A stretch of DNA of 4,283 nucleotides from IMG/VR virus record IMGVR_UViG_2541047097_000005; one strand, given 5' to 3'. This DNA comes from a virus (lineage: Duplodnaviria > Heunggongvirae > Uroviricota > Caudoviricetes). Shown piece by piece: positions 629 through 4,283 of the stretch; the stretch's first letter is position 1, and the number at the start of each line of letters is the position of its first letter. A model generated the notes under the pieces. It saw nothing but the letters and a program-made list of their open reading frames with translations, was not told where the DNA came from and ran no database searches. The position numbers were made by a program, and so were the translations under genes.

Positions 629-1345
629 ATGGAAACCGTATCTGACGCACTGAAAGCACTGAAAAGAGCCTCTTCACATGTGGTGGCAGCTCGCCTTGGA
701 ATTAGTCGTGAAGAGGCTGTCAACGAACTGTGGAAACTGAAACGCCGTGGAGAAGCGGATAACAAGGGGGCGATATGGTGGCTGACTCAGGCTGGTGAAA
801 GTGAACCGGTGTCACCGGTACCGAAAGTGACGGCGCAAATGCTGACAGAGGCGATTGAACAACATGGCCCACAAACGGCGGATGAACTGGCATTGATGTT
901 CGGAATTACCTCCCGCCGGGCGAATTCATCGCTGGCAATGGCAATCAGCAAAGGGTGTCTGATTCGCGTGAATCAGGATGGTAAATTTCGTTACTGCATA
1001 CCGGGCGTTGATTTACCGGCAGAGCCGAAAGCAGCATCCGTAGCTGAAACGGAGGGTAAAGCCCTTCCTCAGCCAGCTGGTGTTGCGTTACCAGTCCAGG
1101 AAACGGCTGCACAGGAAGAAATTAAAACAGAAGCGGTGGAGGACATTGTGAAGTTGCAGCAATCGTTCACTGAAGCGAAAGCAGATGACCTGATTCTACC
1201 ATCGCTGCATGTGGCTAACCGCGAGCTGCGCCGGGCGAAAAGTAATGTTCAGAAGTGGGAGCGAGTCTGTGCTGCGCTACGGGAACTGAACAAACACAGG
1301 GATATTCTCCGGGATATTACCGCCACCAGAGAGCAGCAGCGGTGA
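629..1345 (+). CDS. Prophage protein, DUF1627-like, with an N-terminal winged-helix-like segment; function unknown
   Basis: ORF ends at TGA 1343-1345. I prefer ATG 629 (METVSD..), which has GGAGG at 616-620 eight nt upstream, over the TTG at 611 used in the ORF track. N-terminus ([23 protein letters not shown]) looks like a small DNA-binding/winged-helix fold; the central part is Ala/Glu/Pro-rich and linker-like. Family call is from memory of prophage annotations next to P genes, not verified. Confidence 0.7.
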
Positions 1346-1659
1346 GTGGCTGGAAGAAGTGGCGCTGGGCTGAAATCCTGATACTCCGGCAGTGTGCGGG
1401 AACGATGAGAGTCGAAAGCATCGGTTATCTGATTGGCCGTAGTGAGTCAGCCGTCAGGACGAAAGCGCGGGAACTGGGTATCAGCATGATGTTACGGGGT
1501 GATTATCACCAGTCAGCCAAATGTTCACAGCGTGATATTGAGCTGGCGTGGCAACTGCATCAGCGTGGTGTACCCCGACGGGAAATTGCCGAAAAGTTTG
1601 GGATGAAGTTGGGCGCAGTGAATAACTACGTTTATTTCGACAGGAGGGTTCAGGAGTGA
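1342..1659 (+). CDS. Small protein with two tandem helix-turn-helix-like repeats (putative DNA-binding regulator)
   Basis: GTG at 1342-1344 overlaps the upstream stop (GTGA, 1342-1345). Two internally similar segments: [38 protein letters not shown] and [29 protein letters not shown], each resembling sigma-70 region 4 / LuxR-type HTH (xxEIAxxxGxSxxAVxx). Alternative start ATG 1404 would remove the first helix. Stop TGA 1657-1659. Confidence 0.65.
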
Positions 1660-1958
1660 GGGTGAGGGTTTATATCGCCGGTCCGATGACGGGATATGAA
1701 AATTTTAACCGCGAGGCATTTCACAAAACGGAAGAGGTGCTGAAACGGGAAGGGCATACCGTTTTAAACCCGGCAGTACTTCCGGACGGGCTGACTCAGC
1801 CACACTACATGGATATTTGCATGGCAATGCTCCGTTGCGTGGATGCGGTTTACATGCTGAAAGGCTGGCAGCAGTCGGCAGGTGCAGGGGCTGAGCTGGC
1901 ACTGGAGGAGAAACCGGGCCATGCGGTGATTTTTCAGGAGGTGGGCAGTGAATATTGA
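1656..1958 (+). CDS. DUF4406 family protein (nucleoside 2-deoxyribosyltransferase-like fold)
   Basis: GTG at 1656 (or 1662) overlaps the upstream stop, with CAGGAG at 1651-1656. N-terminal motif VYIAGPMTG followed by ..VLNP.. and a C-terminal acidic EL..E segment is typical of the small phage DUF4406 / deoxyribosyltransferase-like Rossmann proteins. Stop TGA 1956-1958. Confidence 0.8.
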   Translation: MRVRVYIAGPMTGYENFNREAFHKTEEVLKREGHTVLNPAVLPDGLTQPHYMDICMAMLRCVDAVYMLKGWQQSAGAGAELALEEKPGHAVIFQEVGSEY

Positions 1959-2265
1959 CCCGGCGATAACGATTGATATGGCCCTGAACGCCGGCCTGGC
2001 ACTTCTTGGTTATTTCTACATTATGTTCTGCAGCGGACGATGGCTGTCACTGTTGTTCATGAAAAAATGGAATAAACGCCGTAAGCAGGAGCAACGCCAG
2101 AAGGCAATGGATGCATTTTTCGAAGCCTTCGGAATTGACGGCATGGAACCAGGGGATCCAGCTCGCGCAATCAGCAGAGGGGGTGTAGTAATCCTTGTAT
2201 ATCGGAGTGAAGAGAAAAATGACGATCACAAAACAACGTGTAGAAGAAATCATATCCCGCATTGA
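1948..2265 (+). CDS. Small membrane protein (one predicted transmembrane helix followed by a basic stretch), function unknown
   Basis: GTG at 1948 with a strong SD AGGAGGTGG at 1936-1944; overlaps the DUF4406 stop by 11 nt. Hydrophobic segment ITIDMALNAGLALLGYFYIMFCSGRWLSLLF followed by KKWNKRRKQEQRQK. The last 47 nt overlap the next ORF, so the C-terminal tail may be run-on. Confidence 0.55.
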   Translation: MNIDPAITIDMALNAGLALLGYFYIMFCSGRWLSLLFMKKWNKRRKQEQRQKAMDAFFEAFGIDGMEPGDPARAISRGGVVILVYRSEEKNDDHKTTCRRNHIPH

Positions 2266-2536
2266 AATGTATGGACATGGTGCAGGGTATATCGCAGACG
2301 AGGTTAATGATCTGGCTATACTGGCGCTGAATTTATCAAATATCGCGAACCTGAAGCGATACGAGCTTGATATGGGAGGTTGCGACTCGTGCGGTCAGGA
2401 TTGTGGCGCTGATATGACTGAAGATCCTGATGGTGATTATGTCCTGTTTGATGACGTGGTTAAGTTGTTTGAATTTGATACAACCACTCAAAAGTTAGAA
2501 ATCCCGGCAAAGGAGGCAGCCAGTGGGCAAGATTGA
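2219..2536 (+). CDS. Hypothetical acidic protein (105 aa), function unknown
   Basis: ATG at 2219 preceded by GGAG (2204-2207) and GAAGAG (2208-2213); the ORF track's TTG at 2195 is less likely. Product is acidic with a Cys cluster (CDSCGQDCG). Stop TGA 2534-2536 overlaps the next start. Confidence 0.6.
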   Translation: MTITKQRVEEIISRIEMYGHGAGYIADEVNDLAILALNLSNIANLKRYELDMGGCDSCGQDCGADMTEDPDGDYVLFDDVVKLFEFDTTTQKLEIPAKEAASGQD

Positions 2537-2960
2537 CTATCAGGCACTGCGTGAGGCAGCACAAAACTATCAATCGACGCTGGCGTGGTATCAGGCTACC
2601 CCGGACAGCCCAAATGCTGAACGGGATTGTGATGCGGCTCTTGCTGCGTTTAAGCGTCACATCCGTCATCGGGAAGCGGATATTATCGCTGATTTGCTGG
2701 ATGGACTGGAAGAAGCAAAATCACAACTCAACGAGCAGCGTGAGTATTACGAAGGCGTTATCTCTGATGGGAGCAAGCGTATTGCTGAACTGGAAGCGCG
2801 GGAAGTTCAATTACCGACTCGCTACGACCTTCGATATGGACACCCGATAAATGCAGATGAGCGACATGTCATGATACCTAAAGAAAATGGCAGTTGGCTT
2901 TACCTGATTGACCTAGAACACGCATTACGCGTCGCTGGCATTCGCATCAAAGGAGAGTGA
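2523..2960 (+). CDS. Ead/Ea22-like family prophage protein (putative)
   Basis: GTG at 2523 with SD AAGGAGG at 2510-2516, overlapping the upstream stop. Motifs IDYQALREAAQ at the N-terminus and KRIAELEAREV in a central coiled-coil-like stretch match my recollection of E. coli prophage Ea22-like proteins; family assignment unverified. Stop TGA 2958-2960. Confidence 0.7.
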   Translation: MGKIDYQALREAAQNYQSTLAWYQATPDSPNAERDCDAALAAFKRHIRHREADIIADLLDGLEEAKSQLNEQREYYEGVISDGSKRIAELEAREVQLPTRYDLRYGHPINADERHVMIPKENGSWLYLIDLEHALRVAGIRIKGE

Positions 2961-2961
2961 G

Positions 2962-3153
2962 ATGAACGGACAAATATCAATTGTTCGACCAGGAGCATGT
3001 GACGATCGCGAAATACGAATGATTATTCGTCTGGCGATGGGGAAAACAATAACTGCTCTCATTACTCCAGAAAATCTCGCATTAGCATTAACAGGAAAGT
3101 CAGACATGCCAGTAGAGCTAAAGCTGCGAAATGTTGAGATTAAGGTGAAATAG
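2962..3153 (+). CDS. Small hypothetical protein (63 aa)
   Basis: ATG 2962 with SD AGGAG at 2951-2955 (6-nt spacing), placed 1 nt after the upstream stop. Stop TAG 3151-3153. No recognisable motif. Confidence 0.5.
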   Translation: MNGQISIVRPGACDDREIRMIIRLAMGKTITALITPENLALALTGKSDMPVELKLRNVEIKVK

Positions 3154-3155
3154 CT

Positions 3156-3713
3156 ATGACCACTATTACCAAAGATCGACTGCTGACAATCCAGCATTGG
3201 CGCGAAACATACGGACCGGGTAGCAACGTTGTGCTTCCAGCAGAAGAAGCGGAAGAGCTGGCACGGATTGCGCTGGCATCACTGGCAGCAGTATCGGATG
3301 AACGAGCAGCCTATGAATTATTTATGGAGAAGCGTTTCGGAGAATCTGTAGATCGCCGCAGAGCAAAAAATGGCGATAGAGAATACATGGCATGGGATAT
3401 GGCGCTTGGCTGGATTATCTGGTGTCACCGCGCCGCCATGCTTCAGGCTGGAAACTTTCGGGAAAATAAGGGTTCGTCAACCAATAATTTTCGGATAATC
3501 TCGGAAACGTCAACCAACTCTCCGGCAATCCCTGATGAGGTGTTGTCCGCAATCCTGAAGGTCGCCAGGCTTCGTGCAGATTTCGATGCTTCTGAAGTGG
3601 ACAGGCGAGGTATCGGTAGTTGTCTGGATGAGGCCGAGCAAGAACTTATCGTTACCATTAACGAATACGCCAGTCAGATCGCAGTAGAAGCGACACAGGG
3701 GGAGAACCAATGA
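3156..3713 (+). CDS. Hypothetical prophage protein (185 aa), function unknown
   Basis: ATG 3156 with AAGGTGA at 3143-3149, 2 nt after the upstream stop. The N-terminus (LTIQHWRETYGPGSNVVLPAEEAEELARIALASLAAV) resembles N-termini I associate with prophage Ea22-like/early-left proteins, but I cannot assign a family. Stop TGA 3711-3713. Confidence 0.7.
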   Translation: MTTITKDRLLTIQHWRETYGPGSNVVLPAEEAEELARIALASLAAVSDERAAYELFMEKRFGESVDRRRAKNGDREYMAWDMALGWIIWCHRAAMLQAGNFRENKGSSTNNFRIISETSTNSPAIPDEVLSAILKVARLRADFDASEVDRRGIGSCLDEAEQELIVTINEYASQIAVEATQGENQ

Positions 3714-3787
3714 GCCGGCCAGATGCATTTGCAGGCGTTGCTATAGCTATTGCTTTTCTAGTATATGTTATTTGTCGGTGGGGGTAA
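3710..3787 (+). CDS. Candidate mini-ORF, 25-aa hydrophobic peptide (MSRPDAFAGVAIAIAFLVYVICRWG)
   Basis: ATG 3710 overlaps the upstream TGA (ATGA) and has GGGGAG at 3698-3703 with 6-nt spacing. The 16-residue hydrophobic core could span a membrane. Stop TAA 3785-3787. Too short for the ORF track. Confidence 0.3.
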   Translation: MSRPDAFAGVAIAIAFLVYVICRWG

Positions 3788-3822: not shown

Positions 3823-3927
3823 ATGTCGGATGATATTTCACTGGTAATGGAAGGCGCTCTGGCTGTTATTGCTGTTGTGGGTGTTTACTGCCTGGTTGTG
3901 TTTTTGATGGAGCGCCTGGGGAACTGA
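3823..3927 (+). CDS. Candidate small transmembrane protein, 34 aa (MSDDISLVMEGALAVIAVVGVYCLVVFLMERLGN)
   Basis: ATG 3823 preceded by a near-consensus SD AAGGGAGGG at 3811-3819. Single roughly 21-residue hydrophobic helix with a charged C-terminus (ERLGN). Stop TGA 3925-3927. Too short for the ORF track. Confidence 0.45.
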   Translation: MSDDISLVMEGALAVIAVVGVYCLVVFLMERLGN

Positions 3928-3995: not shown

Positions 3996-4013
3996 TGCTG
4001 CGGGTGCTTGAGG

Positions 4014-4049
4014 CTGTCTGCCTCGGGCATGCCACCGTAAGGCAGACAG
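4014..4049 (+). promoter_or_regulatory. hok mRNA leader stem-loop (9-bp perfect stem, 18-nt loop)
   Basis: CTGTCTGCC (4014-4022) pairs perfectly with GGCAGACAG (4041-4049). The loop contains the palindromic octamer GGCATGCC (4026-4033). Position and sequence parallel the 5' structured element of R1 hok mRNA. Confidence 0.55.
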
Positions 4050-4057
4050 AGAAAAGC

Positions 4058-4122
4058 CCCAGTTAACATTACGCGTCCTGCAAGACGCTTAACATTAATC
4101 TGAGGCCCAATCTATGCTTCAC
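4058..4122 (-). ncRNA. sok: Predicted Sok-like antisense RNA (type I antitoxin); ends approximate
   Basis: Placed by analogy with R1 hok/sok, where Sok is antisense to the leader and mok start region. Covers the mok-like ATG at 4114 and the hairpin at 4073-4088. Start is inferred from the minus-strand promoter at 4129-4157. The 3' end is guessed from the stretch whose antisense reads GGGGCTTTTCTCTGTCTGCC, similar to R1 GGGGCUAUCUUCUUUCUGCC. Confidence 0.4.
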
Positions 4123-4128
4123 AAACGT

Positions 4129-4157
4129 AGGTTAGCCTCTTACGCGCCGAAAGGCAA
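4129..4157 (-). promoter_or_regulatory. Predicted promoter for the Sok-like antisense RNA
   Basis: On the minus strand: -35 TTGCCT (complement of 4152-4157), 17-nt spacer, -10 TAACCT (complement of 4129-4134). Same position and near-identical spacer as the R1 sok promoter I recall (TTGCGC, 17 nt, TATCCT). The -10 is a weak match to TATAAT. Confidence 0.4.
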
Positions 4158-4170
4158 GGAGAAGCAGGTT

Positions 4171-4283
4171 ATGAAGCAGCAAAAGGCGATGTTAATCGCC
4201 CTGATCGTCATCTGTTTAACCGTCATAGTGACGGCACTGGTAACGAGGAAAGACCTCTGCGAGGTACGAATCCGAACCGGCCA
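4171..4283 (+). CDS. hok: Hok/Gef family type I toxin (small membrane-depolarising peptide), 3' end truncated by the window
   Basis: ATG 4171 with SD AAGGAG at 4156-4161. Translation MKQQKAMLIALIVICLTVIVTALVTRKDLCEVRIRTGQ.. matches the Hok/Gef family and, from memory, is closest to chromosomal HokD/RelF-type sequences. No stop before the window end. Confidence 0.9.
   Translation, partial: MKQQKAMLIALIVICLTVIVTALVTRKDLCEVRIRTG

Follow-up and report, generated by a model that had tools for sequence, protein, structure and literature searches.

The question raised by this locus is whether three small genes that follow one another closely, at positions 1342 to 2265 of a 4,283-nucleotide (nt) stretch of phage DNA (IMG/VR record IMGVR_UViG_2541047097_000005; the whole stretch is called the window here), form a functional unit or are simply neighbours. 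They encode a predicted helix-turn-helix (HTH) protein, a DUF4406 protein and a DUF4752 protein. An original prediction, made from the letters of the window, had proposed that they constitute a translationally coupled module that could modify nucleotides, sequester a signalling nucleotide or act as a defence effector. Our analysis favours a simpler reading, to which we assign a probability of roughly 0.78: the three are consecutive, small, independently assorting accessory genes in the early operon of a Rac-like prophage, and not a dedicated three-gene system. No functional link among them is implied by this reading.

The evidence that carries it is the distribution of the genes, each of which is found elsewhere without the others. 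When the three were searched by blastn against 5,426 complete Escherichia coli genomes, the HTH gene was detected in 1,369, the DUF4406 gene in 1,315 and the DUF4752 gene in 859. The HTH and DUF4406 genes were contiguous in 635 genomes and the DUF4406 and DUF4752 genes in 432, while the full trio was contiguous in 411 of the 1,986 genomes that hold any part of it. Between 278 and 288 of those 411, at ≥99% identity, represent the heavily sequenced O157:H7 clone. Related mosaic prophages that hold the genes in one shared syntenic slot would be expected to leave such residual linkage within E. coli.

Outside Escherichia, two kinds of search covered the 5 kb flanks of DUF4406 at 78 loci, taken from GTDB species representatives. 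By tblastn, a relative of the HTH protein was found at one locus and relatives of the DUF4752 protein at two; profile hidden Markov models recovered HTH relatives at three loci and DUF4752 relatives at two, never both together, and neither method found the arrangement of the window at any of the 78. The genes that abut DUF4406 in these species are of other kinds: upstream, replication initiators (10 of 44 neighbours), DnaB, DUF977, N6/N4 and MT-A70 methylases, Lar and dUTPase; downstream, C5 methylases (5 of 54), DUF968, an exonuclease, VRR-NUC, SNF2 and holins. Overlaps, of 1, 4 or 8 nt, are frequent at these junctions as well. The 10 upstream initiators, of the REP_ORF2-G2P type, belong to a group of Firmicutes prophages. 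DNA methyltransferase genes (N6_N4_Mtase, MT-A70, Dam and C5) directly flank DUF4406 at about nine of the 78 loci.

The same independence is seen from the side of DUF4752. Among 79 IMG/VR loci of this gene with enough upstream sequence, the HTH and DUF4406 genes precede it, in that order, in 16 and neither lies upstream in 63, so that the co-occurrence across prophages expected of a module is largely lacking. The next gene downstream (orf2219) follows DUF4752 in 56 of these 79 loci and is a commoner partner than DUF4406. Alternative orders include DUF1627–DUF977–DUF4406–Ead in O55:H7, LygF–rac19–ead in phage Rac-SA53, TraR/DksA–DUF4752–orf2219-like–Ead, and DUF1627–HTH followed by unrelated small genes. 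In these alternative arrangements the genes still lie stop-on-start with their new neighbours.

Homologues of the three genes are also reordered on two P1/D6-like phage-plasmids of about 94–98 kb. In pO111_2 (locus L084, 4003–4293), DUF4752 follows Ead alone, and pF374-2 (locus L083, 4979–8786) carries DUF4406, HTH, three hypothetical genes, Ead, a further hypothetical gene and DUF4752, in that order; its DUF4406 homologue reaches 203 residues through an N-terminal extension. The three families therefore belong to a pool of accessory genes common to lambdoid prophages and phage-plasmids. Their families differ in size by orders of magnitude, with 9,087 clusters for DUF4406 (at 50% identity, among 1.84 billion representatives), 158 for the HTH protein and 56 for DUF4752.

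The overlaps that suggested a module are exactly as the original prediction described. The GTG at 1342–1344 forms a GTGA with the TGA at 1343–1345, the GTG at 1656–1658 overlaps the TGA at 1657–1659, and the GTG at 1948–1950 overlaps the TGA at 1956–1958. The three genes are, however, only three links of one nine-gene chain. The genes from 629 to 3713 lie on one strand, packed stop-on-start, and the overlapping chain continues beyond them, so that any limits drawn around the trio are arbitrary. The chain comprises the following genes, completed by a 25-residue open reading frame (ORF) described below:

629..1345, plus strand: DUF1627 (ydaW-like) gene, the upstream neighbour of the trio (Pfam DUF1627, 271 bits; RefSeq coding sequence)
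1342..1659, plus strand: HTH protein, 105 residues (RefSeq WP_000017339, annotated as hypothetical; phrog_323 at 1.8e-24)
1656..1958, plus strand: DUF4406 protein, 100 residues (RefSeq WP_001310212, annotated as DUF4406; Pfam PF14359, 115.1 bits)
1948..2265, plus strand: DUF4752 protein, 105 residues (RefSeq WP_001017965, annotated as DUF4752; Pfam PF15944, 132.1 bits)
2219..2536, plus strand: orf2219, the downstream neighbour of DUF4752 (phrog_3126 at 2.5e-66; RefSeq coding sequence)
2523-2960, plus strand: Ead/Ea22-like gene, in the same overlapping chain
2962-3153, plus strand: orf2962, in the same overlapping chain
3156-3713, plus strand: DUF551-like gene, 185 residues, in the same overlapping chain

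The junctions, counted in nt with overlaps as negative values, are −4 from DUF1627 to HTH, −4 from HTH to DUF4406, −11 from DUF4406 to DUF4752, −47 from DUF4752 to orf2219, −14 from orf2219 to Ead, +1 from Ead to orf2962, +2 from orf2962 to the DUF551-like gene and −4 from the latter to the 25-residue ORF. A strong Shine-Dalgarno sequence, AGGAGG, precedes GTG 1656 by 8 nt and GTG 1948 by 6 nt, and the site at the HTH start is weak. No prominent promoter-like or terminator-like site lies in or just before the trio region, and the totals for the whole window equal the expectation from shuffled sequence. With one strand, overlapping stops and starts, and no standout promoter or terminator site, the proposed co-expression of the three ORFs is plausible. 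The genes would be co-transcribed from an immunity-controlled early promoter on induction, and their translation would combine coupling with their own Shine-Dalgarno sites.

All three are real genes under constraint, since the ratios of nonsynonymous to synonymous substitution rates (dN/dS) against diverged alleles point to purifying selection on each (0.19 for HTH, 0.15 for DUF4406 and 0.23 for DUF4752). Antisense ORFs of up to 71 residues are present in the trio region, with no gene evidence for any of them, and the Rfam scan returned nothing within 1342–2265. Base composition takes a mild step in GC content, from 0.55 to 0.47, near position 1950.

The window is 99–100% identical to E. coli O157:H7 chromosomes, and its counterpart in strain SS52 lies in a prophage integrated beside potC. 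The order there is integrase, excisionase, racR, a ydaS-like HTH gene, a YdaT-family gene, a DnaT-like gene, replication protein P and DUF1627; after the trio genes come Ead/Ea22, DUF551, hokD, DUF968 and a RusA pseudogene. From this gene order, the window represents the rightward early operon in a lambdoid, Rac-like prophage of E. coli O157:H7. The ydaU–ydaV–ydaW backbone is also present in the complete phage Rac-SA53. Hundreds of RefSeq genomes already carry annotations of the three genes, with existing DUF families. An NCBIfam search of eight window proteins gave no match.

The nin region of phage lambda (ninA–ninH) offers the closest comparison in kind. Lying between replication gene P and Q in the early right operon, it is made up of small, tightly packed, mosaic genes, most of them dispensable. 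The window is alike in position and architecture but not in gene content, none of the three genes being a nin homologue by Pfam or PHROG.

The competing explanation is a co-adapted module in which the HTH protein would target or regulate, the DUF4406 protein would act on a nucleotide, and the DUF4752 protein would anchor or execute at the membrane, in superinfection exclusion, as a defence effector or in anti-defence. It could draw on the overlapping stops and starts, on the presence of the trio at 95–100% identity in 411 E. coli genomes, on the joint occurrence of all three families in one operon of pF374-2, and on a gene call (P0008, 169 residues, three member sequences) that fuses DUF4406 and DUF4752. 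Most likely, the fused call reflects a frameshift or an assembly error in the 11-nt overlap and no genuine fusion, and in pF374-2 the order differs, with six genes counted between the DUF4406/HTH pair and DUF4752. Any one of the genes often occurs by itself beside other neighbours, the families differ widely in phyletic breadth, and the arrangement is absent from the 78 loci of other species. Nor did any of the eight proteins encoded in 629–3713 match a PADLOC-DB v2 family at E ≤ 0.01. The position of the genes, downstream in a repressor-controlled early operon and lacking a promoter of their own, would also argue against a defence role expressed in the lysogen. We consider a module of this sort most improbable, and the sponge, anti-defence and defence-effector ideas attached to it are pure speculation.

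Some observations weigh against complete independence of the three genes. The E. coli genome set is clonally biased, so that the percentages drawn from it are rough. The HTH gene lies directly upstream in about 48% of the DUF4406-bearing E. coli genomes (about 34% when the O157 clone is left out). In pF374-2, moreover, the DUF4406 and HTH genes are adjacent in the reversed order, and DUF4752 lies 2.6 kb downstream of them. Since HTH and DUF4406 are thus neighbours whichever comes first, a loose functional tie may link them.

Within this reading of separate accessory genes, the DUF4406 protein is the member for which a biochemical role can be proposed. Its family assignment was borne out by Pfam PF14359 (115.1 bits against a cut-off of 22), with residues 4–92 covering profile positions 2–90 of 91. 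The tandem GTGAGG GTGAGG at 1656–1664 provides two in-frame GTG starts, at 1656 and 1662. RefSeq uses the first, but the second may be the true start, because the family consensus N-terminus is MK/RIYIAG; the junction with the HTH gene would then shift from −4 to +2, with DUF4406 still abutting the HTH stop. In a Pfam scan of 49 long DUF4406 relatives no fusion partner recurred, and single cases with HTH_3/MqsA and with DUF551 were seen.

The AlphaFold2 (AF2) model of the protein (predicted local distance difference test, pLDDT, 85; predicted template modelling score, pTM, 0.80) is a four-strand β-α-β sandwich, with strands at 4–8, 35–37, 64–67 and 90–93 and helices at 19–31, 48–59 and 75–85. 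Foldseek comparison of this model with the PDB gave as best matches Trypanosoma brucei and bacterial nucleoside 2-deoxyribosyltransferases (NDTs), human and rat DNPH1, and MilB, at probability 1.0 and query-normalised TM-scores of 0.65–0.78; mutants of DNPH1 at D80 are among the matched entries. The NDT-like fold that had been suggested for the protein, of the flavodoxin-like β-α-β kind, is thus confirmed at the level of predicted structure, TIR and SLOG domains being more distant neighbours. The protein is a member of Pfam DUF4406 and, by the fold of its model, of the NDT superfamily; it is not an orthologue of DNPH1 or of NDT.

Residue conservation, computed over 311 distinct family members, singles out Y6, G9, P10, G13, N18, R19, F22, N38, P39, Y51, W71, S74, G76, A77 and E80 as the most conserved columns. 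Y6 is kept in 91% of members (F in 8%), S74 in 310 of 311, G76 in 99% and E80 in 309 of 311. All of these residues are retained in the window protein, including the putative catalytic ones, Tyr6, Ser74 and Glu80; the Gly-rich loop G9-P-M-T-G13, together with N18/R19, may bind phosphate. A 74-sequence profile aligned by hhalign to human DNPH1 places Y6, S74, G76 and E80 on Y24, S98, G100 and E104, the last being the DNPH1 nucleophile; a 20-sequence profile had aligned at the N-terminus only, the full-length alignment requiring all 74 sequences.

It has been described that the catalytic triad of the superfamily is Tyr-Asp/Asn-Glu, and that members specific for deoxynucleoside monophosphates (dNMPs) have small uncharged residues at the site where NDTs bind the 5'-OH through Asp/Asn (PMC12884076). 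The position of Ser74 is occupied by Asp in nucleoside-specific NDTs and by Ser in DNPH1. Since Ser74 is invariant and aligned to DNPH1 S98, it fits the nucleotide-specific (5'-phosphate) pattern. Asp53, considered as the Asp of the triad, was dropped because only 62% of the family have Asp at this position.

On these grounds NDT-type chemistry is probable for the DUF4406 protein. In the proposed mechanism, Glu80, positioned by Tyr6, would attack C1' of a ribonucleotide or deoxyribonucleotide, while Ser74, the G9–G13 loop and N18/R19 would accommodate the 5'-phosphate. The most likely role is N-glycosidic cleavage or transfer on a 5'-phosphorylated substrate: the protein would be a (d)NMP N-glycosidase or a phosphodeoxyribosyltransferase that reshapes or cleans the pool of nucleotides while the phage DNA replicates. 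Such a part in nucleotide metabolism is favoured because the neighbours in other species belong to replication and DNA metabolism, because phage homologues are annotated as MazG-like pyrophosphatases or dCMP deaminases (some of them apparently fusions), and because there is a precedent in DmtZ. DmtZ, from Z-genome phages, is a phage member of the NDT superfamily that acts as a dAMP hydrolase and deoxyribose-5-phosphate transferase, and so a precedent both for the dNMP chemistry proposed here and for a part in the nucleotide pool (PMC12884076). It differs from DUF4406 in having about 145 residues and five strands, and in being tied to non-canonical DNA and to PurZ0/DutZ clusters, genes that this prophage does not carry. 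In the literature searched, DUF4406 is named in three papers, each time as an annotation, with no reported activity.

Several points tell against the enzymatic assignment. The DUF4406 sequence and profile gave no significant match in the PDB, 1t1j scoring no better than E 1.7, and the pairwise E of 0.014 between DUF4406 and DNPH1 in hhalign is weak, although the alignment is topologically consistent with the AF2 model. The third triad residue is not conserved in the family, and the same weak alignment places DNPH1 D80 on C55, two residues away from D53. Also missing is the C-terminal segment through which NDT and DNPH1 provide trans-subunit residues: the protein ends seven residues past its fourth strand, at 100 residues in comparison with the 125–165 of the Foldseek targets (target-normalised TM-score about 0.5). 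The O157:H7 allele, finally, carries at 1905–1916 two rare changes, L87P and A84E (the latter seen in 3 of 311 family members). They fall within or directly behind the helix of the putative catalytic Glu80, and may alter or weaken the activity of this allele.

The same features separate DUF4406 from its named relatives. DNPH1/Rcl (PDB 4p5e, 8qhr and 2khz) has about 145 residues and five strands, whereas DUF4406 has 100 and four, with no counterpart of the trans-subunit Ser128 and no conserved equivalent of Asp80. PA1492/DUF1937, the structural-genomics protein behind 1t1j, belongs to a different Pfam family, shares 18% identity with DUF4406 and is also uncharacterised in function. In comparison with the NDTs of PF05014 (1f8x, 2a0k and 6evs) and the CMP hydrolase MilB (4ohr), DUF4406 has Ser and not Asp at the 5'-OH/5'-phosphate position, lacks the C-terminal region and, for the window protein, shows no PF05014 score.

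Other roles can be weighed against nucleotide hydrolysis or transfer. If the protein were a true nucleoside 2-deoxyribosyltransferase, swapping bases between deoxynucleosides for salvage, this would agree with the names of its homologues in PHROG 355 and in many GenBank phage records, with T. brucei NDT as the top Foldseek match, and with the 3 of 49 diverse DUF4406 relatives that also match PF05014. Those names, however, were transferred by similarity, the window protein falls below the PF05014 threshold, and Ser74 aligns with DNPH1 Ser98 instead of the NDT Asp that binds the 5'-OH (by the rule given in PMC12884076). The protein also lacks the Asn/Tyr-containing C-terminal segment (100 residues in comparison with about 157), and we regard this alternative as unlikely. 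A counter-defence protein, hydrolysing or sequestering an immune-signal or toxic nucleotide such as a NAD-derived Thoeris signal, a cyclic nucleotide or a modified dNTP/dNMP product of a defence enzyme, appears very unlikely. Its closest structural neighbours are MilB, NDT and DNPH1, and not TIR or SLOG; the neighbouring genes elsewhere and the annotations of the phage homologues also point to replication and nucleotide metabolism. The family's conserved residues are of the catalytic type (Tyr, Ser and Glu), with the Glu and Tyr kept at 91–99%, which makes a pure nucleotide sponge less likely than an enzyme.

A wider form of the glycosidase proposal is equally remote. DUF4406 proteins would constitute a new class of minimal four-strand N-glycosidases in temperate phages, either destroying, by TIR- or DNPH1-like chemistry, an immune-signal nucleotide or a toxic or modified one produced by host defences, or purging modified dNMPs from the salvage pool, and the two-HTH protein could be a loosely linked partner in enterobacterial phages. 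The purging of methylated dNMPs would fit the frequent DNA-methylase neighbours.

The HTH protein would be a separate, bipartite DNA-binding protein. Its AF2 model (pLDDT 80.7) contains two three-helix bundles, at residues 9–45 and 63–104, in agreement with the description of the protein as a tandem HTH. In Pfam, the Sigma-70 region 4, HTH_23 and resolvase HTH models all score below threshold, and the best, Sigma70_r4_2, reaches 21.2 bits against a cut-off of 25.7. Foldseek found no significant global match for the model (best E 0.018), probably owing to the arbitrary orientation of the two bundles, and the weak neighbours listed are proteins with bipartite HTH domains (Cbp1, Tc3 transposase and Pax). 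The tandem HTH label is thus a reasonable one for the ORF at 1342–1659, given the predicted model. Homologues, named "DNA-binding protein", occur in Escherichia, Salmonella, Pantoea, Citrobacter and Enterobacter. In their alignment the N-terminal motif W.RAEI.I.RQCAG, upstream of alternative starts, is kept across genera, which supports the start at GTG 1342.

The DUF4752 protein would be a separate small membrane-anchored protein. It matches Pfam PF15944 far above the cut-off of 27 bits, with residues 7–90 on profile positions 1–84 of 84, and consists of an N-terminal hydrophobic helix (about residues 11–37), a basic KKWNKRRKQ sequence and a small C-terminal domain. The hydrophobic stretch followed by KKWNKRRKQ agrees with the earlier label of small membrane protein, while the best 19-residue Kyte–Doolittle average (1.54, at residues 11–29) is borderline, just under the usual 1.6; from its sequence, membrane location is plausible. 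Its homologues come almost exclusively from E. coli or Shigella, and no mention of DUF4752 was found in the literature searched. The last 13 residues form a variable tail that overlaps orf2219, and this tail is seen only in alleles followed by orf2219. The product of orf2219 is an acidic protein with a GGCDSCGQDCG motif.

Further downstream, the 185-residue protein encoded at 3156–3713 has no Pfam match, and a close relative is named DUF551 in RefSeq. Its 93% identity with the SS52 protein is limited to the first 132 residues, a sign that a mosaic recombination junction lies within the gene. An unannotated hydrophobic ORF of 25 codons (MSRPDAFAGVAIAIAFLVYVICRWG; Kyte–Doolittle 2.12) follows at 3710–3787, its ATG overlapping the stop of the DUF551-like gene (ATGA), and an annotated hydrophobic ORF of 34 codons (Kyte–Doolittle 2.72) lies at 3823–3927. 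Both may encode small membrane peptides between the early genes and a hok/sok type I toxin–antitoxin locus at 4002–4283. In this locus, Rfam sok (RF01794, 114.9 bits) at 4002–4176 is the sole Rfam match of the window, and the hokD coding sequence begins at 4171 and continues past the window end.

The arrangement of the trio is thus best seen as a by-product of the packing and shuffling of small early genes in lambdoid prophages, the three being otherwise ordinary mosaic accessory genes. Names in PHROG and GenBank already imply how DUF4406 is related in fold, and only the substrate of this enzyme family is of some interest. DUF4406 is a very widespread phage and prophage family that holds the Glu, Tyr and Ser of NDT/DNPH1 in a minimal scaffold of 100 residues, and it could provide the biocatalysis of nucleosides and nucleotides with a very small scaffold for an N-glycosidase or transferase. 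The identity of its substrate would clarify how temperate phages manipulate the nucleotide pool.

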